Assembly: GCA_016930415.1 (NCBI GenBank)
Contig: JAFGGS010000003.1
Coordinates: forward strand, 6,691 to 70,690
Direction of reading: 5' to 3'
From: Candidatus Woesearchaeota archaeon
Lineage (GTDB): Archaea > Nanobdellota > Nanobdellia > Woesearchaeales > SM23-78
DNA length: 64,000 nucleotides
Under the pieces are notes generated by a model. It had not been told where the DNA came from, did no database searches, and saw nothing but the letters and a program-made list of their open reading frames with translations. Every line of letters starts with the position of its first letter. The stretch's first letter is position 1. Shown piece by piece: positions 4,877 through 49,989 of the stretch. The position numbers were made by a program, and so were the translations under genes.

Positions 4877-5021
4877 TGGTTTGGATGCACGCGTTCCTGG
4901 TTTAAAAACTTTAGGAAATGAAGCTTCATCCCTTCGGGAAAGCTTTAAAAACAGCCCTTTTCTACGGTTTGGTTAAAGCCTTTTTTCAGTGGTTTTTAGC
5001 TTAATGTGAGCGTTTGTTAAT

Positions 5022-5930
5022 ATGACTGGTATTTTCGTCTTGAGTCTTGATGAGGAGCTTCTCTGGGGCGTGTCCTCAAGGAGTGATCGTGATTATTTCA
5101 AGTGGGGTGTTGATAAGGAGAGGAAGGTGTTCAAGCGCTTCCTGGACCTGCTTGACAAGCACGAGATCAAGGCTACCTTCGCGATAGTCGGACACATGAT
5201 GCTCCAGGGCAGGCGTGATTGCCCTGACAAGGGTTGCTTCTGCAAAGGGGTCGATGAGCGCTACGCCTTTGGCAGGGACGTCGTCAGGATGATCAGGGAG
5301 CGAGGCCATGAGATAGGAATACATGGCCACACCCACTCGTTCTTTGACGAGCTCTCAAAGAGAGAGGCTGACGAGGAGCTCTTCAAGGCAGTAGCTGCTG
5401 CAAGGAGCCTTGGGATAGAGGCCAAGAGCATGGTCTTCCCTCAGAACAGGGTCGCGCACCAGAAGAGCCTTTCGAGGCATGGCATCTCTGCTTATAGAGG
5501 CGCTGATGAGTGGTGGTTCTCTAAGTTCCCGGGCTTCGTGCAAAAGCCTCTTCATCTCCTGGATTACTTGTTCACAGTCACTCCGCCTGTCTACAAGGCG
5601 AGGAGGGAGAAGGCTGAGGGTGGAGTGTTATACAACTTGCCTGGCAGCATGTTTTATCTTGCAAGGGATGGATTCAGGAGATACGTCCCTATGGGCTGCA
5701 GGGTGAAAAAAGCCATCAAGGGAATGGATAAAGCTATAAATGAGGATAAGGTTTTCCACTTATGGTTCCATCCCTTCAACTTGTCGTGGGACAGCGGCGA
5801 GATGCTGAAGGGGCTTGATCAGATACTGGCCTACGCGGCTGAGAAGAGAAAAAGGGGCGAGCTTAGGACTATGACTATGCAGGAGGTTGTGAGATATGAG
5901 GATACTAGGCATAAGCGAGACAGACAATGA
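5022..5930 (+). CDS. Polysaccharide deacetylase (CE4/NodB-like)
   Basis: LSLDEEL, ATFAIVG, HEIGIHGHTH, VFPQN, FHLWFHPFN. Confidence 0.85.
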   Translation: MTGIFVLSLDEELLWGVSSRSDRDYFKWGVDKERKVFKRFLDLLDKHEIKATFAIVGHMMLQGRRDCPDKGCFCKGVDERYAFGRDVVRMIRERGHEIGIHGHTHSFFDELSKREADEELFKAVAAARSLGIEAKSMVFPQNRVAHQKSLSRHGISAYRGADEWWFSKFPGFVQKPLHLLDYLFTVTPPVYKARREKAEGGVLYNLPGSMFYLARDGFRRYVPMGCRVKKAIKGMDKAINEDKVFHLWFHPFNLSWDSGEMLKGLDQILAYAAEKRKRGELRTMTMQEVVRYEDTRHKRDRQ

Positions 5931-7608
5931 TTCTGGCGCAGCCCTTTTGATAGACGGCAAGATCGCCTTCGCGGCTAATGAGGAGCGCTTCAGCAGGGTA
6001 AAGAGGCACAGGGGTTTTCCTTACGAGACGATCAAGTGGATATTAAAGTCTTCTCGCCTCTCGCTTGACGACATCGACCAGTTCGTGATCGCAAAGGGCT
6101 CTAAGAGAAAAGAGATCAAGTCTTACGTCGGCGCGCTCACAAGCCACTTCATGAAGGAGAAGTTCACAGTCCCAAGGAGCAGGGTCCTCCTCGACCAGGG
6201 AGTGTGGTTTGGCAGGAACATTCCTCAGCTCATAAAAGATACCACCAGCCTTAATGGCGAGATCGAGAAGTGGTTCAAGGAGAGCAAGATCCCTGCGGAG
6301 AAAATCCACAGGGTAGACCATCACCCGGCCCACGCTGCCTGCGCTTATTACTTCTCAGGATTCGAGGACGCCCTCGTAGTCACTTGCGACGGCCAAGGGC
6401 TCGGAGTGACAGCGAGTGTGTGGGAGGTCGCGCACGGAAAGTTCAAGCTCATAAGCACGTCGAGGCTTCCTGACAGTCCCGGCAACTTCTACGGCTTGGT
6501 CACAAAGGTGTGCGGCTTTACGCCTAACAGGCACGAGGGCAAGATAACAGGCCTCGCAGCCCATGGCCACGAGGTGCTGGAGGTCCGCAAGTGCGTGGAT
6601 GAGATGCTTTTCTTCAGGAACGGCAAGATCCGGAGCAACGCGATCTATGGAAGCTACCTGCACGTCAAGAAGCTTCATAAGAGATATGGCCGCGAGAACC
6701 TAAGCTACGCTTTCCAGAAGAGGCTGGAGGAAGTGGTCACTGCTTATATCAATCATTATTGGAAGAAGAGGAAGCACTTGAAGAACATCGCGCTCGCAGG
6801 AGGGGTGTTCGCGAACGTGAGGCTCAACCAGGAAGTCATGGAGCTTCCAGGCGTGCAGCAGCTGTTCGTCTATCCTCACATGGCAGACGGAGGGCTCTGC
6901 GCAGGAGCAGCAGCCATGCTAGAGCCTGACATGAAGCCTTACCGCCTGCACGACGTCTACCTGGGCCCAGGATACTCGACGGCCGAGATGAAGAGGGCTC
7001 TTGACAAGTTCAGGGTCAAGTATAAGAGGCCGAAAAACCTTGCCAAGGAAGTGGCAAGGCTCCTTGCAAAGAACTTCGTCGTAGGAAGGTTTGACGGCCG
7101 CATGGAGTTCGGGCCAAGGGCCCTTGGCAACAGAACCATCATGTACCACACGACCGACCCTAAGGTGAACGAGTGGCTCAACAAGAACCTACACCGAAGC
7201 GAGTTCATGCCGTTCGCGCCCGTGACCTTGAAAGAGCACGCGTCCAGGTGCTACAAGGGATTCGAGAGGGGAGAGTACACGTCCGAGTTCATGACGGTAA
7301 CGTTTGACTGCACAGACGAGATGAAGAGGACGAGCCCTGCAGTCGTGCACATCGACGGCACGGCGAGGCCGCAGGTCGTGACGAAGGACATAAACCCTGG
7401 CTACTACGACATCGTGAGCGAGTACTACAAGCTCACAGGCATCCCGACCGTCGTCAACACCAGTTTCAACATGCATGAGGAGCCGATAGTGTGCAGCCCG
7501 CAAGACGCGATCAGGAGTTTCAAGCAGGGAAACCTGGACGCATTGATAGTCGGGCCTTTCCTAGTCATAAACCCGAGGCTTCGAAAAGAGCTCAGGAGCA
7601 AGAAATGA
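5896..7608 (+). CDS. Carbamoyltransferase (NodU/CmcH family)
   Basis: EERFSRVK, HHPAHA, EGKITGLA, LAGGVFANV, EFGPRALGNR, FMPFAP, NTSFNMHEEPIV. Confidence 0.93.
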   Translation: MRILGISETDNDSGAALLIDGKIAFAANEERFSRVKRHRGFPYETIKWILKSSRLSLDDIDQFVIAKGSKRKEIKSYVGALTSHFMKEKFTVPRSRVLLDQGVWFGRNIPQLIKDTTSLNGEIEKWFKESKIPAEKIHRVDHHPAHAACAYYFSGFEDALVVTCDGQGLGVTASVWEVAHGKFKLISTSRLPDSPGNFYGLVTKVCGFTPNRHEGKITGLAAHGHEVLEVRKCVDEMLFFRNGKIRSNAIYGSYLHVKKLHKRYGRENLSYAFQKRLEEVVTAYINHYWKKRKHLKNIALAGGVFANVRLNQEVMELPGVQQLFVYPHMADGGLCAGAAAMLEPDMKPYRLHDVYLGPGYSTAEMKRALDKFRVKYKRPKNLAKEVARLLAKNFVVGRFDGRMEFGPRALGNRTIMYHTTDPKVNEWLNKNLHRSEFMPFAPVTLKEHASRCYKGFERGEYTSEFMTVTFDCTDEMKRTSPAVVHIDGTARPQVVTKDINPGYYDIVSEYYKLTGIPTVVNTSFNMHEEPIVCSPQDAIRSFKQGNLDALIVGPFLVINPRLRKELRSKK

Positions 7609-8147
7609 ACGATAAGAACATAGAAGCAGAGGCGCGTAGCTTCATATCAGAAGAGAAATACTTTGAGCTCTTGTCTTTCTTCAAAGAGAACGCCAAGCTA
7701 TTGAAAGAGGACAACCAGGAAACCTTGTACTTCGACTGCGAACAGGATCTTCGCATACAAAAGAATGATTTCTACGCAAAGGTCTGGCTCAAGTCCGGGA
7801 AGGTCCACGATGATAGCAGGGAAGAGCTCGAGGTCAAGGCAGATAAGGAGGACTACGAGCTCTTAGAGAAGATATTCCTGAAAATAGGGTTCAAGGTCGA
7901 TATCAAGTGGTATCGTAAGAGGAGCGAATTCTCATGGAAAGGGATGACTGCCTGCCTGGACTGCACTCAAGGCTACGGCCACATAATCGAGCTGGAAGAG
8001 ATGACAAGCGAATCCGAGAAGGAGATAGTACACGAGAAGCTTGAGCGAGAGCTGAAAAAGCTAGGCGTGGACCTGACTCCCAGGGAAGAATTCGAGAAGA
8101 GATACAAGGAATACAAGAAGAACTGGCGGGAACTGACAAGGCGTTGA
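7605..8147 (+). CDS. CYTH-domain protein (class IV adenylate cyclase/triphosphate tunnel family)
   Basis: Start set at the ATGA overlap with the upstream stop; IEAEAR, DLRI, REELEV, KWYRKR, GHIIELE motifs. Confidence 0.85.
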   Translation: MNDKNIEAEARSFISEEKYFELLSFFKENAKLLKEDNQETLYFDCEQDLRIQKNDFYAKVWLKSGKVHDDSREELEVKADKEDYELLEKIFLKIGFKVDIKWYRKRSEFSWKGMTACLDCTQGYGHIIELEEMTSESEKEIVHEKLERELKKLGVDLTPREEFEKRYKEYKKNWRELTRR

Positions 8148-8315
8148 AGAATGGTTCCTTTTGAGAACGACTCTAACAAAACACAATACTACAATAAATA
8201 GGAAAATATATAGAATAAGAATACTTAAACTCAACCAGGAATAGAAAAACAACAAGCCTGTTTGGGAAATCCAGATGCTTGTTTCCAGTAATGACAAAAT
8301 CTGCACACACCGACC

Positions 8316-8330
8316 GTAACCTTTATAAAT
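8316..8330 (+). promoter_or_regulatory. Archaeal TATA promoter of 5S rRNA
   Basis: CTTTATAAAT at 8321-8330, about 22 nt upstream of the mature 5S start. Confidence 0.65.
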
Positions 8331-8351
8331 AACCCTATTTTCTGGCTGTTT

Positions 8352-8463
8352 GGACGGTCATAGCGGAGTGGTTACACCTGTTCCCGTTTCGAACACAGAA
8401 GTTAAGCACTCCTACGTTCCGGCGCGTACTGCATTTATGTGTGGGAGAACCGGAAAGCTGTCC
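8352..8463 (+). rRNA. rrf: 5S ribosomal RNA (stand-alone)
   Basis: GGACGG...CATAGCG...ACACCTGTTCCCGTTTCGAACACAGAAGTTAAG...GTACTG...GGGAGA...GCTGTCC; helix I ends pair (GGACGG/CTGTCC). Ends approximate. Confidence 0.92.
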
Positions 8464-8465
8464 TC

Positions 8466-8477
8466 CTTTATTTTTCT
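8466..8477 (+). terminator. U-rich archaeal terminator after 5S rRNA
   Basis: CTTTATTTTTCT immediately after the 5S 3' end. Confidence 0.55.
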
Positions 8478-8557
8478 CGCGGGTCATTTTCCGAACTGAC
8501 GAGCAGCGCAAACCATCATACCTCATCATAATTCTTGTTTTCTATTCCCTTCTTCCA

Positions 8558-8574
8558 CGCAAAGCTTTATATAA
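8558..8574 (+). promoter_or_regulatory. BRE/TATA promoter for the leader-ilvB transcript
   Basis: CGCAAAGC followed by TTTATATA (8566-8573), 25 nt before ATG 8599. Spacing is similar to other leaderless genes in the window. Confidence 0.7.
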
Positions 8575-8598
8575 TATGCTTGCGTATATGCCTTCATC

Positions 8599-8670
8599 AT
8601 GGAGAAGGCTACGACAATGGACTTGGCTGTCATTCTTCTAGTGCTAGTCGTCGTAGTCCTTACGCTATAG
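8599..8670 (+). CDS. Putative branched-chain amino acid leader peptide MEKATTMDLAVILLVLVVVVLTL
   Basis: 23 codons; 13 of the last 15 are L/V/I, including 11 in a row; lies between a TATA box and ilvB. Confidence 0.7.
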   Translation: MEKATTMDLAVILLVLVVVVLTL

Positions 8671-8767
8671 TTTTCTCCTGTTCTTCTTCAACACCAAAAG
8701 CGAAGGGGAACAGGGTGAGCGCTATCTACAACCTACATAGAGGAATATGAGGGGAGACAAAAAAAAA
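8671..8767 (+). promoter_or_regulatory. Putative attenuator/switch hairpin region upstream of ilvB
   Basis: 13-bp stem CCTGTTCTTCTTC (8677-8689) / GAAGGGGAACAGG (8702-8714). The same pyrimidine tract is also complementary to 8739-8747 and to the SD region 8752-8757. Confidence 0.55.
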
Positions 8768-10642
8768 ATGTATTCGGAAGCATTGAGAACGACACCCAGG
8801 ATTGGCGGCAGCGATAGTTTCATTGCGAGGGACTCGGTCGGCCTTGAGAAGAGCGTCGTCCTTAAGGGTTCTGAGGCTGTCGTCAAGATCCTTGAGAGGG
8901 AATTCAGAGACTATCAGGCTCCGCCTGTCGTCTTCGGCATCCAGGGCGGCAAGGTCATCTCGCTCTTCGACTCTCTGAGCAAGTCTGATATCAGGATTGT
9001 ATCCTGCGGCCAGGAGGGCGCTGCTGGCCACATGGCTGAGGGTTATGCTGAGTCTACTGGCAAGGTCGGCGTGGTCATCGCGACGTCTGGCCCTGGCGCG
9101 ACTAATCTTATGACGCCGGTCCTTGACGCGTTCATGGATTCTGTCCCGATCGTCGCTATCACGGGCCAGGTCCCGGCGAATGACCTTGGAAGCATGGCGT
9201 TCCAGGAGGGCCCGGTCTTCGAGATGATGAAGAGGATCACTAAGAAGAGCTACCTAGTCACTCATCCTGATGTCTTAGTGAATACTTTGAGAGAGGCTTT
9301 TGCAGTGGCCAGGAGCGGCAGGCCTGGTCCTGTCAGCGTTGATATAACGTCGAACGTGTGGGGCAAGGAGTTGCTCTACCATCCTGACAAGCCTTTTAGC
9401 TTTGAGCAGCCTGTCAAGGGCAGGGATAGGTTCAAGGAGGCGAGTGTCGAGGAGGTCTTGGAGGCGCTCTTGCAGTCTGAGAGGCCTATAATACAGGCTG
9501 GCGGCGGCGTCAAGGTCGCTGGCGCGCACAAGGAGCTCTTCGAGTTTGCAAGGAGGTACAACGTCCCGGTCATAACGACTCTCAAGGCGCTCGGCTGCTT
9601 CCCTAAAGACAGTGATCTTCATCTTGGAATGGCTGGCATGCATGGAGGGGCGTATGCTACTAATGCGTTGTTCAGCGCGGACTTCGTGTTGTTCATCGGC
9701 AGCAGAGTCGATGACCGAGTGATACCTGATCCTGACGAGTTCTTGGGGCACGGCAGGAACGGCAAGCCTAAGACGATCGCCCACGTCGACGTGGATCCTT
9801 ATGAGATCAATAAGAGGCTTGACCCTGAGAGGCGGGGTGGCGAGCGTTTCAGGAGCTTGCCTATCAACACTGATGCCAAGTCTTTCCTTGAGGAAGCCTT
9901 GAGGATAAATCCTTATGAGAGCAAGAGTTTCAGCGGGTGGCACGAGCAGATCAACGCTTGGAGAAGGGAGTATCCTCTTCCAAGGTTTTCCAGGATTATC
10001 GACGACGGCAAGGGTTATCCTGAGGGGCTTATCAAGCCTCAGTTCGTGCTTGAGACTCTTGATCGGCTGCTTCAGGAGTACAAGGGCGAGTTCATACTGA
10101 CGACTGGCGTAGGCCAACACCAGATGTTCGCCGCCCAATACATGACTCCAAGGGGGCCTAGGAAGTTCATAACCTCAGGCGGAGCCGGCACCATGGGCTT
10201 TGGCCTTCCGGCGGCTATCGGCGCCCAGCTCGCGAATCCCGACGCATTAGTCGTCAACATCGACGGAGATGGCAGCTTCAACATGAACTCCCAGGAGCTC
10301 AGGACCCTCTACGAGCAAGGCATCCCTGTGAAGACGGTCATATTGCACAACGGATCCCTTGGCATGGTGCGCCAGTGGCAGGACTTGATGTTCAAGGAGA
10401 ACCGAGTCGCGACGGCTATCGGCAGCAGCGCGCACCCTGATTTCGCGGCCGGCGCATTCGCCCAGTACGGGATGGAGTCTGCGCGCATATCAGAATACAG
10501 GCTTGTCGAGCCCGGCATCAGGCGCATGATGCAAAGCCAAGGCCCTTTCGTCCTCGACGTCGTCGTCGATCCTGACGAGCACGTGCTCCCCATGATCATG
10601 CCCGGGAAGCCTGTCAACGAGATGAGGACTCACAAGGGTTGA
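8768..10642 (+). CDS. ilvB: Acetolactate synthase large (catalytic) subunit, biosynthetic type
   Basis: EGAAGHMAEGYA, TSGPGATN, ITGQVP, GMAGMHG, DDRV, GVGQHQM, GTMGFGLPAAIGA, GDGSFNMN...LGMVRQWQ. Start 8768 preferred over 8747 on SD spacing. Confidence 0.93.
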   Translation: MYSEALRTTPRIGGSDSFIARDSVGLEKSVVLKGSEAVVKILEREFRDYQAPPVVFGIQGGKVISLFDSLSKSDIRIVSCGQEGAAGHMAEGYAESTGKVGVVIATSGPGATNLMTPVLDAFMDSVPIVAITGQVPANDLGSMAFQEGPVFEMMKRITKKSYLVTHPDVLVNTLREAFAVARSGRPGPVSVDITSNVWGKELLYHPDKPFSFEQPVKGRDRFKEASVEEVLEALLQSERPIIQAGGGVKVAGAHKELFEFARRYNVPVITTLKALGCFPKDSDLHLGMAGMHGGAYATNALFSADFVLFIGSRVDDRVIPDPDEFLGHGRNGKPKTIAHVDVDPYEINKRLDPERRGGERFRSLPINTDAKSFLEEALRINPYESKSFSGWHEQINAWRREYPLPRFSRIIDDGKGYPEGLIKPQFVLETLDRLLQEYKGEFILTTGVGQHQMFAAQYMTPRGPRKFITSGGAGTMGFGLPAAIGAQLANPDALVVNIDGDGSFNMNSQELRTLYEQGIPVKTVILHNGSLGMVRQWQDLMFKENRVATAIGSSAHPDFAAGAFAQYGMESARISEYRLVEPGIRRMMQSQGPFVLDVVVDPDEHVLPMIMPGKPVNEMRTHKG

Positions 10643-10692
10643 TTAAGAAAAAAAGTAAAAAAGTCATGGAAAATATTTTTTATCTTATCTTC

Positions 10693-11649
10693 TCATTTCA
10701 CATCGTAGAATTTCTTGTACCAGTCTATGAACTTGGGGATTCCTTCCTCGACTTGGGTCTTTGGGTCGAATCCCAGCATCTTTCGTGACTTGGTCAGGTC
10801 TGCCATGGTGATTGGCACGTCTCCTGGCTGCATCGGCATGTTGTTCCTCTTGGCTTTCCTGCCGATGGCTTTCTCTATGCACTCGATGTATTTCTCAAGC
10901 TCGACAGGGTGGTCTCCTCCGAGGTTGAATATCTCGTAGGGATATGCCTTGTCCAGGGCTGCGAGGACGCCTGCTGTTATGTCATCTATGTATGTGAAGT
11001 CTCTCTTCATCTTGCCGTGGTTGTAGACGTCTATCGGCTTGCCTTCTATTGTCGCCTTCGTGAACTTGAAGAGCGCCATGTCTGGCCTGCCCCAGGGACC
11101 ATACACTGTGAAGAATCGCAGGCCTGTGCAGTTGAGCCCGAAGAGGTGGTGGTAGGTGTAGGCCATCAGCTCGCACGTCTTCTTTGAAGCAGCGTATAAT
11201 GAGATCGGGTGGTCGACCGGGTCTTCTTCTGCGAACGGCACTTTCTTGTTGTTGCCGTAGACTGAGCTGCTGGAGGCGTATATGAAGTCTTTGACTCCGT
11301 GGTGCCTGCACATCTCAAGGAGGACTAGTGTTCCGTGGATGTTGGTGTGCTCGTAGGCGAACGGGTTTTCTAAGGAATACCTGACGCCTGCCTGGGCTGC
11401 CAAGTGGCATATCTTGTCTGGTTTGTGTTCCTTGAAGACCGCTTCCATGGCTTCCTTGTCTGCAAGGTCTTTCTCGACAAAGGCGAATCCTTTCTTTCCA
11501 AGGAGCTCTGTTAGCCTTGCTTTTTTGAGGTTTACGTCGTAGTAGTCGTTCAGGCTGTCTATCCCGACTACATCATCTCCTCTTGCGAGGAGCGCTTGCG
11601 AAACGTGGAATCCTATGAATCCGGCTGCGCCAGTCACGAGTATCTTCAT
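10693..11649 (-). CDS. NAD-dependent epimerase, UDP-glucuronate 4-epimerase type
   Basis: TGAAGFIGFH, HLAAQAGVRYS, YASSSSVYG, SLYAASKK, RFFTVYGPWGRPDMA. Confidence 0.92.
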   Translation of the reverse strand: MKILVTGAAGFIGFHVSQALLARGDDVVGIDSLNDYYDVNLKKARLTELLGKKGFAFVEKDLADKEAMEAVFKEHKPDKICHLAAQAGVRYSLENPFAYEHTNIHGTLVLLEMCRHHGVKDFIYASSSSVYGNNKKVPFAEEDPVDHPISLYAASKKTCELMAYTYHHLFGLNCTGLRFFTVYGPWGRPDMALFKFTKATIEGKPIDVYNHGKMKRDFTYIDDITAGVLAALDKAYPYEIFNLGGDHPVELEKYIECIEKAIGRKAKRNNMPMQPGDVPITMADLTKSRKMLGFDPKTQVEEGIPKFIDWYKKFYDVK

Positions 11650-11655
11650 CTTTTC

Positions 11656-12972
11656 TTATCTCCCTACTCCTTGGTATTTGATCCCTGTCTTCTTCATCTC
11701 TTCAGGGTCGAATACGTTCCTGCCGTCTATTATGATGTGCTCTTTCATGAGCTTCTTCACCTTGTTAAAGTCCGGCTCCCTGAACTCATCCCATTCTGTC
11801 ATGACCAGGAGCGCGTCGGCGCCGTCTATTGCGTCGTAGACGTCTTTCGTGAACTTGATCGCGTCTTCTTTCAAGAAGAGCTTCTTGCCGTTCTCCATGG
11901 CTTCTGGGTCGTAGATCCTTATGTTCGCGTCTTCCTTGAGCAGCTGCTCGATTACTGTCAGGGTGGCTGATTCCCTTATGTCGTCGGTCCTTGGCTTGAA
12001 TGAGAGCCCCCATATCGCGATCGTCTTCCCTTCAAGCTTCGGCAGGTATTTTTTGAGCTTTGGGATGATGCTTTTCTTCTGCCTCTCGTTGACGTAGTCG
12101 ACTGCTCTCATGATGTTTGATGAGAGCCCGTGGTGCTCCAGCATCTGTGCCAGCGCCTTCACGTCTTTTGGGAAGCACGAGCCTCCGTATCCGCAGCTTG
12201 CCTGCAGGAATCTTGATCCTATCCTCTTATCGAGCCCCATGCCTTTGGCCACTATTTTTATGTCTCCGCCTAGGGCTTCGCATAGGAATGATAGCTCGTT
12301 CATGAAGCTTATCCTCGTCGCGAGCATCGCGTTGCTAGCGTATTTTATGAGCTCTGCATTCTTCTCGCTCGTGAATATTATGGGCCTCTCTGCTCTTGCG
12401 AGCGGCTTGTAGAGCCGCCCCATGAGGTCGCTTGCTTTCTGGCTCGAGGAGCCGATCACGACCCTGTCAGGGTTCTGGAAGTCCTTGACTGCGGATCCTT
12501 CCTTTAGGAATTCCGGGTTGCTTACGACGTCGTATTCGATCTTGGCTTTCCTCTTCTTGAGCTCTTTTGAGATTATCTTGCTTACCTTGTCGGCCGTGCC
12601 TGCAGGGACTGTGCTCTTGTCCACTATGACTGTGTATCTCTCGATGTTCTTCCCGACTTCTTCTGCGACCGCGTAGACGTATCTGAGGTCTGCTTCGCCG
12701 TTCGCTTTCGAGGGCGTGCCTACGCATATGAATATCACTTCGGATTCCTTTATCGCCTTGGCGATGTCTGTCGTGAATGAGAGGCGGCCTCTCTCCACGC
12801 TCCTGTCGAAGAGGTCTTTTAGCCCCGGCTCGTATATTGTCATCTTCCCTTGTTTTAGGGCTTCTATCTTCTTCTCGTCGACGTCTGCGCATATGACGTC
12901 GTTTCCCAGGTCTGAGAAGCAGGTCCCGCTTACCAGGCCCACGTATCCTGCGCCTACGAATAATAGCTTCAT
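11656..12972 (-). CDS. ugd: UDP-glucose 6-dehydrogenase
   Basis: GAGYVGL, CVGTP, KSTVPAGT, SNPEFLKEG, GYGGSCFPKD, GLSFKPRTDDIRE. Confidence 0.93.
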   Translation of the reverse strand: MKLLFVGAGYVGLVSGTCFSDLGNDVICADVDEKKIEALKQGKMTIYEPGLKDLFDRSVERGRLSFTTDIAKAIKESEVIFICVGTPSKANGEADLRYVYAVAEEVGKNIERYTVIVDKSTVPAGTADKVSKIISKELKKRKAKIEYDVVSNPEFLKEGSAVKDFQNPDRVVIGSSSQKASDLMGRLYKPLARAERPIIFTSEKNAELIKYASNAMLATRISFMNELSFLCEALGGDIKIVAKGMGLDKRIGSRFLQASCGYGGSCFPKDVKALAQMLEHHGLSSNIMRAVDYVNERQKKSIIPKLKKYLPKLEGKTIAIWGLSFKPRTDDIRESATLTVIEQLLKEDANIRIYDPEAMENGKKLFLKEDAIKFTKDVYDAIDGADALLVMTEWDEFREPDFNKVKKLMKEHIIIDGRNVFDPEEMKKTGIKYQGVGR

Positions 12973-13157
12973 TTTTTCACCGTTTCTTGATTTTCAGAGC
13001 CTGTTTTTGTGTTTTATGATACTGGCTTCTGTATTCCGAGTATATTATGGCTCTTTTTGTCTGTAAGAAAAAGGAACCATTTATAAATGTTATGTAATCG
13101 GACAGTGATAACACAAAAGAGTTTTCTCTCTATAAAAAGAAAAAAAAGCCACTACAT

Positions 13158-13403
13158 TCAAGCAGTAGCCTTAACCCTCTTCAAGAGCTCAGAGCCCTCC
13201 TCGACCATGAGCTCATCCTCAGCGAGAGGCTCCTCAGTCACCTTCACGGTATTCGCGAGTATCGTCTTGTAATACTCGATCGGCTTCACGTTCGTGATGA
13301 TCGTCTGCTGTATCACGAAGCGTCCGTTCCTGCTGGCCTTTATCCTGCTCTGGATGATAGGCATCCTCTTGAGCTGCTGCTCTTTCTTGTCGCTAAGTCC
13401 CAT
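13158..13403 (-). CDS. Small hypothetical protein
   Basis: Strong SD GGAGGT, own TATA (~13447-13458), plausible codon usage. Confidence 0.75.
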   Translation of the reverse strand: MGLSDKKEQQLKRMPIIQSRIKASRNGRFVIQQTIITNVKPIEYYKTILANTVKVTEEPLAEDELMVEEGSELLKRVKATA

Positions 13404-13504
13404 TTTAAATGACCTCCATTAGTTGATGCAGCCAGCAGGCAGGAAGTGCTTAATATAATGCTAGGCCCCGCTTTTCGGAAAGAAAGAATGAAGACCAGAG
13501 GAAT

Positions 13505-14392
13505 TTACAGCTTCCTGATCTTCGCAATAAAGAACCCTTGGGTTCCTGTCTTGTGAGGCCATAGCCGCTTGCAAAGCGCGACGTTAGGGTTCAGCTTCCT
13601 GCCAAAGACCCCTGTCAAGCCTGGCTCGCCCACGTGAACACCTATCTTCTCAAGCTCGACATCCTCGTAACTCGATAACAGCCAGTCGATGTTCTCCTCA
13701 TTCTCCTCAGGCTCCAAGGAGCAGGTCGAGTACACCATGACGCCGCCCTTCTTGAGGACTGCAAGGCCTGCGTCGATTAGCTTCCTTTGGACCTTCACCA
13801 TCTCTTTCAGGTCTGAGACCTTCCTCTTGGCGAACCAATCCTTGTCTGTTGCGAAGTTGCCCGAGCAAGGCGCGTCGAGCAATACCTTGTCGAACTCGCG
13901 GCCCAACTCATCCGTAAAGTCCTCTGCAAATGCAGCGTCCTTCTTGTAGACAAGGCAGTTCGACACGCCGCACCTCTCGAGGTTGTTCTTGAGAGCTGGA
14001 AGCCTGGGATTACTCGCGTCGAGCGCGACTAGCACGCCCTTGTTCTCCATCATGGCGGCCATCTGAGTCGTCTTGCTGCCAGGAGCCGCTGCCATGTCAA
14101 GGACTAGCTCTCCAGGCCTAGGATCCAGGACTTCTGCAGGCAACTGGCTTGCGGCCTCCTGGATGTAGATGAGGCCCAGGAAGTGCTCTGGCATGGCGCC
14201 TACCGTGAAGCTTGACTTGAAATAGTAGCCGTGCGAGAGGAATGGTATCTTCTCAAGCTCAGCGTTGAGGCGCTTCTTTAAGGAGGAGTCATCGATCTTG
14301 AGAGTGTTCACGCGAAGGGCGTGAGGGACCACTATGCTCTTAGGGTCAAACATCTCCCCTAGCTTCTCGTACCTCTCAAGGAACTGGTTCAT
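13505..14392 (-). CDS. RsmB/NOP2/NSUN-family RNA m5C methyltransferase
   Basis: YIQEAASQ, VLDMAAAPGSKT, LLDAPCSG, YSTCSLEPEENE. Confidence 0.93.
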   Translation of the reverse strand: MNQFLERYEKLGEMFDPKSIVVPHALRVNTLKIDDSSLKKRLNAELEKIPFLSHGYYFKSSFTVGAMPEHFLGLIYIQEAASQLPAEVLDPRPGELVLDMAAAPGSKTTQMAAMMENKGVLVALDASNPRLPALKNNLERCGVSNCLVYKKDAAFAEDFTDELGREFDKVLLDAPCSGNFATDKDWFAKRKVSDLKEMVKVQRKLIDAGLAVLKKGGVMVYSTCSLEPEENEENIDWLLSSYEDVELEKIGVHVGEPGLTGVFGRKLNPNVALCKRLWPHKTGTQGFFIAKIRKL

Positions 14393-15519
14393 AATTCCAC
14401 CACTATCTTTCCTGCCTTGCTATCAATCTCCTTGACGAGCACGTGGCCCTCGTATCTCTTCTTGAGCTCGTCCCAACCCATCTTCTTGCGGCAGGAGTTC
14501 ATCAAGTCAAGGAGCTCTTTTATCTCGGCGTAGTGCTCATAGATCAGCTCTCCCTTGCGCTGGTTCTCGGAGATGCTCTTCTCAAGCTCTTTCAGACGCT
14601 CTTCCTGCTTTCTTATGATGAGCGTTATCTTCTTCTCCTTGGTCTGCTTCTCCTTTGTCTCGCGAGCATCTGACACGCTGATCATCTTGTCTGTGAGCTC
14701 CTCATCCAAAGCCTTGTTGAACGAAGAGTAGTCCTTCCTTGAAGGGCTGTTTGACTTGGCGGTCTCGAACGGGAAGACTTCTCCGTCTGAAGAATTCGCT
14801 TTTATCTGGAGATGAAACATTCCGCCAAGCTCAGTGTAGGCCTTATCCATCTCGTCGATCGAAAGTCTCTTCTTGTCCTTAGGTATCCCTGCGCGGCTGC
14901 ACAGTTCCTCTGCGTAGACGCCTCCAAGCCCCAGCTCGATCGCGAAGGTCTTGACTATGGAATCAAAGGCAGTGCTCGTTATTATCTTCTCGAACTCTGC
15001 CATGGTCAGCTTCGGCGTGTTGGCCTGGCCAGGCGGGTATTGGTACTTGGTCCCGCCCCTGATGGTCCTCGACTCCCAGTTCTGGCTTTCAAGAAGCCCT
15101 TTTATCTTGCCGTCTTTTTCCAGCAAGACCATGTTTCCCTTGCTGAAGAGCTCACACACGAGCGTCAACTCCGACAACTCCTCCCCCTTCTTCACCTCGA
15201 ACACGACCTCAAGTATCCTCTCAAAGGCGTGCTGGCGGACCTCTTTCACCCTTGAGTTATCAAGGTACTTCCTTAAGAAGACGCAGAATCCTGGCGGCCT
15301 CTCTGGAAACGAGGACTTATACTCAGTCAGGTAGGCTAGCCCTGGCAACTTGACCCGCAGCATCTGCTTGCCAGCGCCTTCGCCGATCTTGCGCAGCACG
15401 AACAAGAAGTCCTTCTTATCATCCTCCTGCTCGTACACCTTATCGACCCTCGCGCCCTCAAGGCTTTTTAGCTCTCTGACAAGAAAAAGCAGGTCAAGAG
15501 AGGTAAGTTCTGTCTTCAT
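14389..15519 (-). CDS. Rqc2/NFACT N-terminal half (NFACT-N, HhH, first coiled coil)
   Basis: PPGFCVFLRKYL, FERIL, ELFSKGNMVL, YQYPP, LGLGGVYAEELC; ends after the coiled coil, with no NFACT-R domain. Confidence 0.8.
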   Translation of the reverse strand: MKTELTSLDLLFLVRELKSLEGARVDKVYEQEDDKKDFLFVLRKIGEGAGKQMLRVKLPGLAYLTEYKSSFPERPPGFCVFLRKYLDNSRVKEVRQHAFERILEVVFEVKKGEELSELTLVCELFSKGNMVLLEKDGKIKGLLESQNWESRTIRGGTKYQYPPGQANTPKLTMAEFEKIITSTAFDSIVKTFAIELGLGGVYAEELCSRAGIPKDKKRLSIDEMDKAYTELGGMFHLQIKANSSDGEVFPFETAKSNSPSRKDYSSFNKALDEELTDKMISVSDARETKEKQTKEKKITLIIRKQEERLKELEKSISENQRKGELIYEHYAEIKELLDLMNSCRKKMGWDELKKRYEGHVLVKEIDSKAGKIVVEL

Positions 15520-15606
15520 GAGAGTATAGAATCAGGTGCCTTATTTAAATATATTTCACATCAGAATATATGAAGGCTAAGCATATAAAGGAATTTTGAC
15601 TTAAGG

Positions 15607-17064
15607 TCAGATAAGGCTGTTTCTGTTTATTATCTTCTCAGCCGCAGAAAATCCTGCCTCTATGCTGTCGTCTTGGTTGTTGTATCGGAACCTGCCTGAG
15701 CGGCCGATACAGGTCAGGTTTTCTACCTTATCAATGTATCCCATCACCAATTCAAGGTTTTTCTCAAAGCCAAGGTCATATAACGGATAGGCGTGGCTTA
15801 TCCTTATCACGTAATGGTTTCTTACATCCTCTTTTTTCAGGAAGCCAATCCTTTCCAGATGCGGGAGAGCATGATCAAGGAGCTGCTTTGAGCCCATTTT
15901 CCAGGTCGCATCGTTTTCATCGACAAAGAACTCTACTAGAAGAGAAGTTTTTCCTTCAGGGCTCATTTGCCTGCTGAAGTTCCTCATCTCAGATATCCTT
16001 CCGAAAGGGATTTCATTATCAGGGAAATACATCCAGTTATCCCTTGTAACTTGGCGCTTGTTCAATGTTAGGAACAAGTATATTTGGGACCTCCACTTAA
16101 GCCTTCCAGCGGCATCACGCACTTTTTTAGGCGGAAGAGGGGTTATGCGCTTGATTAGCTCTGTTATCGGAATGGAGCTGACTACGAAAGAAGGATTGCG
16201 CACAGCTTCAACACCACCTCCTTGATCGTTTCCGCCGCCCTTAAACTCGATTGAATAAATCTTTTTCCCAGCCATCTTTATCCTGGAAGGCTCTGCGTTG
16301 AGATGAAGCTTCCCGCCTTTCTTACTCACATGATCTAGCATTCGCGTGTATATCGATCCAATCCCATATCTTGGATAGTGGAACTCGTTCACGAGCGACT
16401 TAGGGGAAGAACCGGCAGCCTTATCTTTTTTACTCTCTTCATCCTCGTTCAGAACTGCATTCCTAATTACAGATAACAGGTTAAGGCCGGCTATCCTCTC
16501 GTTCGCCCAAACAGGATGGATTTTCTTGCAGGGAAACCCGATTATTTTCTCAGTGTAGTTAAGCATGCAAAAATCCCCAAGACTCTTCCCGAACTGGGAT
16601 TCTATGTGTTCCTCAAAATTGTTTGGTGATTTTCGGAGTATCCGATAATATGCTGCTGATTTCAGGTATGAGGCCAGCAGCAATCCCGCCCTAAAAAGTC
16701 CTATATTCATAAACGCTTGCACAGGCCTAATTGGATAATCATAGAATTTTCCTCTGATGAACTGGCGCGTGCTCCGCCTTACAGTAAGCAGCTCCTTTTC
16801 AAGCAGGGAGCGCACAGCCTCATAAGCTTGCTTGTTTCCTGACAAGAACCTGTGAGGACCAAGGTCAGTCCTGAAAACAAGGTTTCCTTCCTTAAAGGAG
16901 AGCGTCTTTGCTAGGCCACCAATCTGCGTGCTTTTCTCGTAAATTAAGGGCTTCTTGCCGGCCTCGCTTAGTTTCAGGGCGCATGCTAACCCTGCAGCGC
17001 CCGCTCCTAGCAAGATGACTTTTTCGCGATCTTTCATTATCTCATCATTTCTTGCTTCAGCCAT
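15607..17064 (-). CDS. FAD-dependent oxidoreductase (protoporphyrinogen oxidase/UDP-galactopyranose mutase-like)
   Basis: LGAGAAGL, IGGLAKT, DLGPHRF, FHYPRYG, AYPLY, GRSGRFRYNNQDDS. Confidence 0.8.
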   Translation of the reverse strand: MAEARNDEIMKDREKVILLGAGAAGLACALKLSEAGKKPLIYEKSTQIGGLAKTLSFKEGNLVFRTDLGPHRFLSGNKQAYEAVRSLLEKELLTVRRSTRQFIRGKFYDYPIRPVQAFMNIGLFRAGLLLASYLKSAAYYRILRKSPNNFEEHIESQFGKSLGDFCMLNYTEKIIGFPCKKIHPVWANERIAGLNLLSVIRNAVLNEDEESKKDKAAGSSPKSLVNEFHYPRYGIGSIYTRMLDHVSKKGGKLHLNAEPSRIKMAGKKIYSIEFKGGGNDQGGGVEAVRNPSFVVSSIPITELIKRITPLPPKKVRDAAGRLKWRSQIYLFLTLNKRQVTRDNWMYFPDNEIPFGRISEMRNFSRQMSPEGKTSLLVEFFVDENDATWKMGSKQLLDHALPHLERIGFLKKEDVRNHYVIRISHAYPLYDLGFEKNLELVMGYIDKVENLTCIGRSGRFRYNNQDDSIEAGFSAAEKIINRNSLI

Positions 17065-48335: not shown

Positions 48336-49679
48336 TTAGAGCGTTATCCGCTCCCCGTTCTTGAGTATCTTCACGTCTTCTGACTTGTAGCCTAGTTCCA
48401 TGGCTAGTTCTCTGGTGAGCGCTAGCTTCTCTGCTGGCGCGTGCGTAGGGATTATTATTTTTGGCCTGAGGAGCTTAATCATCTCCCGGTGGTCTTCCCT
48501 GTAGGCGTGTCCTGAGACGTGGACGTCTGTGAATATCCTCACTTTCATCTTCTTGAGCTCTGCGTCGAGCCTTTCACGGTTCCTCACGTTGCTCTCTACA
48601 GGGATTACGCTGCATGAGAATATCACGTTGTCCTCTTCCTTGAACTTGAAGAGGTGGCTAAACACCATCCTTGGCAGGATGCTGCCCGGCTCTGCCTGGT
48701 GTCCTGTCACGACGAAGAGGCACTTCTCAGGGTTCTTGACCTTTCCGAAGTACTTCTTGACTTGGCTTCCGTACTTGACCATCTCGACCTTCCTGGTCAG
48801 GTCTGCCACGCCGGCCTTCTTCGCGGCTGTGACGTACTTGTCAAAGCTCCTGCCTATGAGTATCACTCTTCGCTTGAGCTTGCGCCCCAAGTCGATTATG
48901 GTATTAAGCCTTGCGATGTGGCTTGCGAACGTGGTCACGACTATCGCGTTGCCTTTCGAGTTCACTCCTAGGAGAACGTCTTTTAGCATCTCCCGCGCTA
49001 TGCTCTCTGATGGCGTCTTGCTGTTCTTATGCGCGTAGAGCGTGTCCATGATCAGGACTTTTACTCCTTTCTTGCCGATCTCAGTCAGTCTCTGATAATC
49101 TGGCTTCTCTCCTAGGACTGGCGCGTTGTCTAGCTTGAAGTCAAGCACGTATGCCACTGTCCCTTCTGGCGTGTGAACCATTATTGACGCGGTCTGCGGG
49201 ACTGAGTGCGTCATCCTGACGAACTCTATTGACATGTCCTTTGATATCTTGAATCTCGAGCTTTCATTGTGCGCGTGGAACTTGTTCTTGAGCCTTGTCC
49301 TGTCGCTTATCAGCATCTGCTTCAACACTTCTATCGTGTATTTTGTCCCGTGGATGCCTGCGTTAGGGAACTTGTTTGCGAGGAACGGCACCGCTCCAAG
49401 GTGGTCCAGGTGCGCGTGGCTTATGCAGATCGCCTTGACTTTCGGGATCAGTTCCTTTATCTGGTTGATGTCCGGGACTGCTCCTGCTTTCATCAGCGCT
49501 TCCGCGCTCATGTCCGGCTTCTCGCCAAGATCGTCTCTTTCGTCATCGTCTGTGTAGGCGATGTAGTTGTCCATGTGGAGGCCCAGGTCCAGGATGACTG
49601 CGTCATCCCCATATTTTACCAGGGTGCTGTTTCTGCCCACTTCGGAGAATCCTCCGATCGGGATAATTTCTAATTTCAT
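48336..49679 (-). CDS. rnj: Archaeal RNase J (beta-CASP metallo-beta-lactamase)
   Basis: GGFSEVGRN, SHAHLDHLG, THSVP, DFKLD, TTFASH, HVSGHA, IPTH. Confidence 0.92.
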   Translation of the reverse strand: MKLEIIPIGGFSEVGRNSTLVKYGDDAVILDLGLHMDNYIAYTDDDERDDLGEKPDMSAEALMKAGAVPDINQIKELIPKVKAICISHAHLDHLGAVPFLANKFPNAGIHGTKYTIEVLKQMLISDRTRLKNKFHAHNESSRFKISKDMSIEFVRMTHSVPQTASIMVHTPEGTVAYVLDFKLDNAPVLGEKPDYQRLTEIGKKGVKVLIMDTLYAHKNSKTPSESIAREMLKDVLLGVNSKGNAIVVTTFASHIARLNTIIDLGRKLKRRVILIGRSFDKYVTAAKKAGVADLTRKVEMVKYGSQVKKYFGKVKNPEKCLFVVTGHQAEPGSILPRMVFSHLFKFKEEDNVIFSCSVIPVESNVRNRERLDAELKKMKVRIFTDVHVSGHAYREDHREMIKLLRPKIIIPTHAPAEKLALTRELAMELGYKSEDVKILKNGERITL

Positions 49680-49989
49680 TTTGTTTTTTACCTCTATTAA
49701 TCTGTAATCTGTCTTATTCATCCAGATTATAAACTTATCTTTTTGTTTGTTTTATTCTTGTTTTTTTCGAGAAAGAAATCGTATTTTTTCACTCAAGAGT
49801 TTGGGTTCAAAATTTTAATTCTTATCTCTGTTTTAGCATATGAAAAAATCTGCATTTATAAAGGTTTCGATTTTAATCACTCTTTAATAGCGAACGCGAG
49901 CGAAGCCTGCTTAAAGGGCTTCAAACCAAGATTTAAATACCACCAAGCCAACACAAACCCCAAACAGACGCACAAGGGGGTGCAGACAG

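Follow-up and report, generated by a model that had tools for sequence, protein, structure and literature searches.

Within the 64,000-nucleotide stretch of a Candidatus Woesearchaeota contig analysed here (JAFGGS010000003.1, positions 6,691 to 70,690 of the forward strand, assembly GCA_016930415.1; hereafter the window), a short upstream open reading frame (uORF) at 8599-8670 precedes the gene for the large subunit of an acetolactate synthase (ALS). Our results suggest that this uORF very probably encodes a cis-acting leader peptide, through which the ribosome would read the supply of charged Val-tRNA and Leu-tRNA to set the output of ALS. Judged from its sequence, the element is one of a set, as the same genome has an isoleucine leader before ilvA and an aromatic leader before the gene for 3-deoxy-D-arabino-heptulosonate 7-phosphate (DAHP) synthase. 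Together with its relatives it makes up a family of 28 leaders in 23 genomes, in five classes of codon run and enzyme. In each class the run matches the committed-step enzyme encoded behind it, which we regard as the signature of leader-peptide attenuation and as the decisive evidence, because neither a membrane peptide nor an incidental ORF predicts such a match. The initial annotation of this DNA had proposed a leaderless uORF that senses charged branched-chain amino acid (BCAA) tRNAs and gates ilvB, and this proposal is supported by the comparison, in which the run tracks the enzyme in all five classes.

The leader ORF and the acetolactate synthase gene

The features of the locus all lie on the plus strand. 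A predicted archaeal promoter at 8558-8573 consists of a purine-rich stretch resembling a B recognition element (BRE) and the TATA box TTTATATA (8566-8573), which is separated by 25 nt from the uORF ATG at 8599 and whose 5′ edge lies 33 nt before that ATG. From this geometry we infer that transcription starts at or next to A8599, so that the uORF, MEKATTMDLAVILLVLVVVVLTL, is predicted to be leaderless. It has 23 codons, and its frame, stop position and Val run are kept in G011, a genome of the same genus. Its last 15 residues comprise six Leu, six Val and one Ile, with 11 Leu, Ile or Val residues in a row from V11 to L21, and codons 11-23 (VILLVLVVVVLTL, 8629-8667; 6 Val, 5 Leu, 1 Ile) form the putative sensor run. 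The stop is followed by 97 nt before the ALS start codon (ATG 8768). Every one of these details had been given correctly in the initial annotation, from the BRE/TATA and the 25-nt gap to the 23-codon ORF, its residue counts, the 11-residue run, the CTA and Thr codons and the length of the spacer. The meaning that it attached to two of them stands only in part. CTA, proposed as a control codon, does serve for 3/6 Leu codons of the uORF, an enrichment that is only modest against the 10% of Leu codons that are CTA genome-wide. The three Thr codons are present, but they do not point to sensing of Ile, as they lie in a Ser/Thr/Lys-rich head that is found throughout the family.

The ALS gene (8768-10642) is taken to be monocistronic because the gene that follows (10693-11649, minus strand) is convergent. 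Its frame encodes 624 aa from ATG 8768, or 631 aa when counted from an additional in-frame ATG at 8747, and a Shine-Dalgarno (SD)-like GGGGAG (8751-8756) lies 11 nt before the ATG at 8768, with the counterparts GAGGAG in G011 and GGAGG in G043 before the ALS starts there. No TATA-like motif was found in the spacer (8671-8767), and the separate ilvB promoter downstream of 8670 that the initial annotation had considered as a way for its reading to fail is thus not seen. The product is a thiamine diphosphate (ThDP) enzyme with three thiamine pyrophosphate (TPP)-enzyme domains. Its score against NCBIfam TIGR00118 (biosynthetic-type acetolactate synthase large subunit) is 559 bits, narrowly above the cut-off of 538, and its best solved relatives are the catalytic subunits of acetohydroxyacid synthase (AHAS) from plant, yeast and E. 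coli (E 3e-116). The identification of a candidate BCAA leader upstream of ilvB is thereby borne out both by the TIGR00118 match of the enzyme and by the homologous uORFs, which are tied to BCAA genes. The protein carries an N-terminal extension of ~30-38 residues (window 8768-8880), the family model starting at residue 40 of the 631-aa frame; the G011 ALS has a comparable, poorly conserved extension.

The codon run follows the enzyme

ALS was found at E <= 1e-50 in 11 genomes among 61 relatives (the window's genome, G000, included) and at E <= 1e-90 in 38/401 genomes of the order. When 650 nt upstream of 30 ALS loci were scanned, a Val-rich uORF lay directly upstream of ALS in only three, those of the window, G011 and G043, whose ALS proteins are each other's closest ALS relatives. 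A fourth match, TTG-started and inside the upstream gene, was rejected as chance, and no such uORF was found in G148 and G223, both of which were within the 30 loci scanned. In the 1.30-Mb window's genome, 43 of 21,172 small ORFs (sORFs; 10-60 aa, six frames) have at least seven Val, Ile or Leu among eight residues with at least five Val, which gives a chance expectation of ~0.003 such ORFs per 200-nt upstream stretch on one strand. In G011 (ALS 72-79% identical) the order of 5S rRNA, TATA, uORF (MEIATTHHMTSMVILLVVVVVVVL), hairpin and ALS is preserved, and the DNA from the Val run through the hairpin is ~100% identical to that of the window, third codon positions included. The spacer between the 5S gene and the promoter and the ALS N-terminus have diverged, and the two uORFs differ by indels of 6 nt and 3 nt. 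In G043 (ALS 47% identical), the one genome of another family, a TATA box stands 31 nt before the uORF MKSAITQILVLVVVVVFI, which is followed by T6, the hairpin CTCTCCTTCC/GGGAGGAGAG, GGAGG and ALS. A DNA-level search of the 401 genomes with 8595-8725 returned G011 as the sole significant match, and the 18-34-nt matches in 16 other genomes (E 0.0008-0.009) were taken as chance. Searches further afield gave no closer ALS: a profile search of genome contigs with the ALS alignment returned, among the matches listed (best 80 of 598 loci), only bacterial ALS at 37-42% identity, a search of metagenome contigs returned five loci at 36-39% identity with no close relative, and a phylum-level sample held no further close ALS (7/401 genomes matched, all of the same order).

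The larger part of the family stands before leuA-ilvB operons. We fetched the 5 kb upstream of ALS in 20 genomes where ALS follows another gene, and in 19/20 loci that gene is leuA, encoding 2-isopropylmalate synthase (three of these LeuA proteins, checked against NF002086, scored 703-721 bits with a cut-off of 532). An intergenic, ATG-started and predicted-leaderless uORF of 20-41 aa with a Leu/Val tail precedes leuA in 19/20 loci, 15 of them recognised by criterion and 4 more by eye, examples being MIKNSTITLSVVLVLVLVLL, MKRTNSFKSFTFLLVLLLLVLVL and MESASKIGLLNVLLVLVVLLVLV; G066 has no leuA uORF and has a 1434-aa ORF upstream. The heads of the leaders are variable and rich in Ser, Lys and Thr, and across the family the codon run occupies the last codons of the uORF. 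Among the last 12 residues of 24 leaders (288 residues) there are L153, V88, I15, S12, F5, A3, G3 and M0, so that Leu and Val make up 241 (84%) and Ala, Phe, Gly and Met together 11 (3.8%). The initial annotation had named two outcomes that would speak against it, namely homologous uORFs that are not tied to BCAA genes or that use Phe, Ala and Met freely, and the family shows neither. A TATA-like box precedes 26/28 leaders with its 5′ edge within -36..-22 of the uORF ATG, at about 30-34 nt, a geometry that predicts a leaderless transcript. In 19/26 leaders the main start has an SD-like motif within -16..-4, the spacer contains a TATA-like motif at any position in 8/26, and some spacers between leader and gene are only 44-64 nt long.

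Six AT-rich genomes (G135, G215, G353, G389, G281 and G273; loci L156, L159, L163, L164, L165 and L169, respectively) have a second box, (G)ATTTATAAAA, in the spacer at leaderless distance from the leuA ATG and upstream of a conserved GGTGA or GGAGG, preceded by T runs of at least 5 in four of them (G353, G389, G281, G273). This box may serve as a further promoter or belong to a terminator region.

The leuA-ilvB operon is split in G011 and G043, and here the stand-alone ALS has Val runs and the stand-alone LeuA has Leu runs before it. The two stand-alone LeuA proteins pass NF002086 narrowly, with 577 bits in G011 and 543 bits in G043, and their leaders are MTADSLRKNSAKCAGSLSLLLLLLLLLLLS (G011, an 11-Leu run) and MNSAKTIKSELLLLALLLLLA (G043, 9 of 11 Leu). 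Among the final 12 residues there are V19/L10 in the three ALS-type leaders, V0/L20 in the LeuA-type leaders and L123/V69 in the operon-type leaders; the difference between ALS-type and LeuA-type tails has a Fisher's p of 2e-6, a value that ignores the kinship of the genomes. In G043 the Leu leader is separated from LeuA by a 95-aa ORF with its own GGAGG (L149:8433-8720), whose last 17 nt overlap the start of LeuA; an NAD-kinase-like gene and the gene for leucyl-tRNA synthetase are found downstream.

The match extends to other amino acids in the window's own genome. A scan of G000 for a TATA box at -36..-22 and an ATG-started sORF of 10-45 aa gave 86 candidates, nine of which have at least five identical residues in eight; the full layout is present in 3 of the 9, exactly those before ALS, threonine ammonia-lyase (IlvA) and DAHP synthase. 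The Ile-run uORF MKANDDFARPGMVSGMLSSTASIIIGIIIIIIMA, which contains IIIGIIIIII (C7:59893-59997, L172:194-298), directly precedes IlvA (L172:360-1706; NF006390, 569 bits vs a 421-bit cut-off). Its promoter is almost identical to that of the ALS leader, and a hairpin follows right after its stop, then GGTGA and then IlvA. The aromatic uORF MKVNACEDNAFALASFSFKPFSFFFCFFYW ends in FSFFFCFFYW (C18:32811-32903, L173:212-304) and lies 168 nt before the DAHP synthase gene (L173:473-1606), whose product scores 329 bits against TIGR00034, with a cut-off of 173. Both matches recur: G025, a genome of another family with an IlvA that is 50% identical, has MSALSTIIIISRI before IlvA, and in G011 a uORF that closes with FFGSFSFGFFYYFYW (end FFYYFYW) precedes the DAHP synthase gene. 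In G057 IlvA follows another gene, without a uORF, and in G011 IlvA lies at the start of a contig, which makes the region upstream unreadable. Without the TATA rule the scan of G000 gave 44 run-containing sORFs with a downstream gene and no further cognate case. A Val-rich 14-aa sORF before Nop5/fibrillarin (C10:23838-23882), with neither a stop-adjacent hairpin nor a cognate gene, was rejected as a leader. The collection of upstream regions that the initial annotation had suggested as a check has thus yielded uORFs with cognate runs before ALS, leuA, ilvA and the DAHP synthase gene in relatives.

These data also bear on the idea that the uORFs encode real small hydrophobic proteins, membrane micropeptides or products like type I toxins, that merely adjoin these genes. 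Every leader found does end in 11-15 hydrophobic residues, and in the six AT-rich genomes the hairpin, the T runs and the second TATA-like box would suit a small transcription unit of its own. We nevertheless consider such proteins quite improbable. The composition of the tails (241 Leu or Val against 11 Ala, Phe, Gly or Met) is not that of a membrane helix, and they are not the mixed hydrophobic tails of a membrane protein or type I toxin; rather, the dominant residue shifts with the neighbouring downstream enzyme in five classes. In addition, a short hydrophobic stretch reaches the C-terminus without a flanking anchor, the heads vary freely, no TATA-like motif lies in the spacer of 18/26 leaders, and some spacers are as short as noted above.

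Predicted structures of the leader RNA

In the predicted fold of the window leader the codon run is paired with the beginning of its own ORF. This hairpin 1 (8604-8662) joins the uORF head (8604-8615, including GCTACGAC, codons 4-6) to Val codons at 8650-8662, with an inner helix of 8620-8627 with 8643-8649. The stem between head and run is GCUACGAC/GUCGUAGU in the window and GCUAUCAC/GUGGUAGU in G043, where one G-C pair is swapped to C-G and one C-G pair is changed to U-G. A similar pairing of the run in the free RNA, with about codons 3-6 of the same ORF, is predicted for most family members, as ACUAG/CUAGU in many operon-type leaders and as GAUGAU/AUCAUC in the Ile leader. Relative to shuffled sequences the leaders are predicted to fold more stably (z -2.7 to -3.1), and the stem between head and run is modestly better than that of synonymous recodings (mean z -0.73; 10/24 with z < -1, none < -2).

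Hairpin 2 (8669-8723) is predicted to begin 2 nt past the uORF stop and has a 5′ arm rich in pyrimidines (core 8673-8689) and a 3′ arm rich in purines (core 8702-8719), with a dG of -20.3 kcal/mol and a z of -3.9; a T4 run (8671-8674) lies at its foot. Its sequence is nearly identical in G011, and in G043 a different sequence forms the same fold at the same position. A hairpin starting 0-3 nt after the stop was found by a strict test in 15/23 leaders vs 17/400 control stops of long ORFs, and in 55-nt folds the window (offset 2) and G011 (offset 1) also qualify. The sequences of the stop-adjacent hairpins differ widely, and an alignment of nine shows compensatory change in 6/11 pairs.

A third element, GCTAT (8721-8725), lies just 3′ of hairpin 2. 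It is complementary to GUAGU of the Val run and is invariant in the three ALS-type leaders, for which RNAalifold pairs GCUAU with the run. When the uORF head was masked, 52% of the run nucleotides paired downstream, the average rising from 0.28 to 0.52. The models thus indicate that alternative pairings of the run exist, with the uORF head or with a downstream partner such as GCUAU, for which GCTAT is the putative site. The motif lies 25-27 nt before in-frame ATGs in the three ALS leaders, which makes it a candidate for a weak second TATA box; we judge the pairing role to be more likely because it is not rich in A and T and is followed by an SD. A second mini-ORF of 11 codons (8716-8750), starting with GUG 8716 just behind hairpin 2, was considered and dropped, as it is not conserved in G011 and G043; its TGA overlaps the in-frame ALS ATG at 8747 (ATGA), and it would be unmasked once hairpin 2 opens.

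An alternative reading is that the conserved element is an RNA fold recognised by a protein or metabolite, with the reading frame incidental. The nearly complete DNA identity of the window and G011 over the Val run and hairpin 2, with third positions included, would fit an RNA of this kind, as would the conservation of both hairpins and the folding scores relative to shuffles. It is, however, very improbable: 28 leaders of otherwise differing sequence retain a reading frame that opens with an ATG at TATA distance and closes just ahead of the hairpin, the indels that separate the window from G011 come in multiples of three, the encoded residue follows the enzyme, and the stem inside the uORF is only modestly better than in synonymous recodings. 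No Rfam family matches the leaders; only the 5S rRNA and a tRNA were found, and matches at E 6.8 and 8.5 are chance.

Proposed link from ribosome position to enzyme output

The leader-peptide reading suggests the following sequence of events. The leader would be translated from the first bases of the ALS transcript, its sole job being to read the tRNA supply. A ribosome short of Val-tRNA or Leu-tRNA would halt over the run, at least 4-5 codons before the stop, with hairpin 1 open and hairpin 2 folded. A well-supplied ribosome would reach the stop, and its footprint, extending ~12-13 nt 3′ of the A site, would pull the 5′ arm of hairpin 2 apart. The position of the ribosome would in this way select one of two RNA states, and the RNA state the amount of ALS. 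We examined these states by partition-function folding of 23 leaders with a 29-nt ribosome footprint placed at four stall positions and at the stop. From the geometry we infer firmly that a held ribosome would open the stem between head and run and leave the stop hairpin folded, and that a ribosome at the stop would have to unwind its 5′ arm. By analogy with bacterial biosynthetic leaders, more ALS is expected on starvation. In our working model the hairpin would protect or hide the pyrimidine-rich tract after the stop, so that starvation would favour a full-length, translatable mRNA.

The output step must differ from that of the bacterial attenuator, and several forms of it can be envisaged. 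The one that we tentatively place first is conditional 3′-end formation or termination of an archaeal type between the uORF and the gene, dependent on a factor or on a U/C tract, with the hairpin hiding the pyrimidine tract. Control of ALS translation is possible and clearly less probable, a ribosome parked close to the 5′ end that stabilises the mRNA is rather unlikely, and some other output is unlikely. A gene for an RNase J-like beta-CASP nuclease of 461 aa is found in the window (48336-49721, minus strand), which is relevant only if the leader acts through stability of the mRNA 5′ end.

Evidence weighing against the leader-peptide reading

A number of observations count against the reading proposed here and should be considered together. 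In the constrained folds hairpin 2 stays in all stalled states, and only a ribosome at the stop opens it. On the simplest reading of the geometry, stalling would let the hairpin fold, and a hairpin acting as terminator would then reduce read-through in a starved cell, which is the wrong sign for a biosynthetic gene. We looked for a bacterial-type terminator, a hairpin followed by a U run, and found none in the window, where there is at best a weak archaeal one: no T run of at least 5 occurs in 8671-8767, and the T4 sits 5′ of the hairpin. Across the family a T run of at least 5 was found in the spacer of only 7/26 leaders. Of the attenuation proposed in the initial annotation, the sensing half is supported by the cognate runs, and the hairpin-plus-U terminator of a bacterial attenuator is lacking. 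Nor do the folds point to the start of translation. The unpaired probability of the ALS SD and start in the window is 0.63 in the free RNA, 0.62-0.68 with a stalled ribosome and 0.67 with a ribosome at the stop, and of the 23 leaders, 8 have a more accessible SD under stalling and 6 a less accessible one. With no consistent change in these folds, sequestration of the SD was rejected as a general mechanism; unmasking of the SD by stalling is predicted for G011 leuA (0.12, then 0.37-0.65, then 0.08).

Further points concern the comparison itself. Since the genomes compared are related, they do not provide independent counts. The runs of all leaders found are hydrophobic, and this property alone does not separate them from a membrane-peptide role. 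Because of the second box in the six AT-rich genomes, co-transcription of uORF and leuA is not certain everywhere.

The genome context is also problematic for this reading. The window's genome comprises 22 contigs totalling 1,300,433 bases, at 91% completeness, and encodes the TATA-binding protein (TBP), a family that matched only the 4 archaeal of 14 control genomes, so the organism is an archaeon. At that completeness no ketol-acid reductoisomerase (KARI), dihydroxy-acid dehydratase (DHAD), ilvN, class-IV aminotransferase, LeuA, LeuB or chorismate synthase was found in it, by searches each of which matched in 13 or 14 of the 14 control genomes; weak KARI_N matches proved to be an S-adenosylhomocysteine (SAH) hydrolase and a 2-hydroxyacid dehydrogenase. 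In G011, KARI_C, DHAD, LeuB and the class-IV aminotransferase were not found, and of KARI, DHAD, LeuB and the class-IV aminotransferase only KARI was found in G043. The three genomes are 86-91% complete, so that these absences are not proven, though all three agree. Among the operon-type genomes checked, DHAD is present in G120, G264 and G040, and KARI in G264 and G040. The ALS of the window is, on the gene content found, an orphan enzyme and not the head of a BCAA pathway, and it is one of several orphan committed-step enzymes with a specialised leader. The label ilvB used in the initial annotation is accordingly right as to the ALS family and misleading as to the head of a BCAA pathway, since KARI, DHAD, the class-IV aminotransferase, LeuA and LeuB were not found. 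With the rest of the pathway not found, the benefit of inducing ALS on Val starvation is uncertain.

The same gene content would suit a leftover, in which the family is a real regulatory device and the copy before the window's orphan ALS is inherited and has no current role, since the rest of the pathway was found neither in the window's genome nor in G011 nor, KARI aside, in G043. We think that this is hardly probable. The leader and ALS are both intact, the leader is strongly constrained between G000 and G011, and three orphan committed-step enzymes in one genome each retain a cognate leader; the specialisation of the run to Val before stand-alone ALS and to Leu before stand-alone LeuA argues for continued selection. 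It could also be asked whether the uORF arose by chance in the T/C-rich intergenic sequence, given that 159 ORFs of 20 aa or more occur within 5000-16000. With ~0.003 ORFs of its kind expected per upstream stretch, its recurrence before ALS in three genomes and before leuA in 19/20 loci effectively refutes this.

Returning to the leader peptide, we can offer a speculative and rather unlikely account of why orphan enzymes should be regulated at all. These small-genome archaea would have a ribosome-read regulon with an archaea-specific output, for example the shielding of a pyrimidine tract from a termination or cleavage factor or from a 5′-3′ exonuclease, that here governs only stand-alone ALS, IlvA, DAHP synthase and LeuA. 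A starved cell would then make first-step intermediates that push the pathways of a partner past their feedback-controlled entry points. Genomes of the size of host-dependent organisms that keep only the regulated first enzymes of amino-acid pathways are in any case a pattern that calls for explanation.

Neighbouring genes

A stand-alone 5S rRNA gene (8350-8466, 73 bits) with a T-rich run at its end (region 8350-8478) lies directly upstream of the leader promoter. Contigs from sequencing runs aligned with the locus matched only this 5S gene and short conserved ALS stretches from other organisms, with nothing over 8476-9019, and no RNA run containing the locus is listed. The other neighbours of ALS (5022-8147 and 10693-12972) encode a polysaccharide deacetylase, a carbamoyltransferase, an NAD-dependent epimerase and a UDP-glucose dehydrogenase, a sugar-modifying and not a BCAA context, and a weak CYTH/CyaB-like ORF is also among them.

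Comparison with known leader-peptide systems

The sensing of amino-acid supply by ribosomes stalling on leader peptides is a textbook bacterial mechanism, known for the BCAA and aromatic operons of enterobacteria (ilvBN/ivbL, ilvGMEDA/ilvL, leu/leuL, pheA/pheL), and its transcriptional output needs hairpin-plus-U terminators. The archaeal leaders resemble these attenuators in having a short ORF in the 5′ leader that is rich in end-product codons, with the ribosome as the putative sensor, a codon run in RNA that would pair with alternative partners, and several operons with the same logic. The leader ORF before a biosynthetic gene, presumably co-transcribed with it, and the end-product codons of a classical attenuator are both found, and the intrinsic terminator (a G+C-rich hairpin with a U run) is not found before the window ALS. 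The archaeal leaders differ in their TATA/TBP promoter, in a uORF that is predicted to be leaderless and is not led by an SD, and in a run that lies at the very C-terminal end, adjoining the stop. They also differ in a conserved hairpin that has no U run after it and is not displaced in the stalled-state folds, and in genes that are here single committed-step enzymes of a genome without the rest of the pathways.

To our knowledge there is no established archaeal example of leader-peptide attenuation, and archaeal RNA polymerase is not known to use hairpin-plus-U terminators. The view of the initial annotation that such a system is undescribed in archaea agrees with our full-text literature searches, in which no archaeal case was found and whose coverage leaves out most subscription journals. 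The 28 leaders display what looks like the sensing half of the bacterial mechanism on archaeal TATA promoters and predicted leaderless transcripts. If this is true, they make it directly testable whether archaea, which couple transcription and translation, regulate through that coupling, and they provide a compact RNA of ~170 nt to test it with. The output cannot be the bacterial one, so that a new means of converting ribosome position into expression may emerge.

Two bacterial cases come closer in some respects. In Actinobacteria, Seliverstov et al. 2005 (PMC1262725) describe candidate leader peptides with Ile/Val/Leu runs before ilvB and a LEU element, a Leu-run ORF before leuA. There, either the runs overlap candidate terminator hairpins with poly-U or a pseudoknot joins the Leu run to the leuA SD; not all parts of an attenuator are present there either, and the authors call the precise way of control unclear. 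The likeness lies in the ORFs with Ile/Val/Leu runs before ilvB and a Leu run before leuA. The archaeal run differs in its predicted pairing with the head of its own ORF, in the hairpin after the stop, and in a pairing of run and SD that is predicted in a subset only.

In mycobacteria, leaderless sORFs with poly-Cys runs form a ‘ribulon’, in which a stalled ribosome blocks a duplex that sequesters the ribosome-binding site (RBS) of the next gene, according to Canestrari et al. 2020 (bioRxiv 10.1101/834739). The window folds show no RBS sequestration, and the two systems also differ in domain of life, promoter and translation machinery. What the two have in common are sORFs with a run of a single residue, leaderless there and predicted to be leaderless here, that would act as sensors before metabolism genes for that same amino acid, at several loci per genome. 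A putative regulon of this type is represented in the window's genome by three loci, with Val/Leu before ALS, Ile before IlvA and Phe/Tyr/Trp before DAHP synthase.

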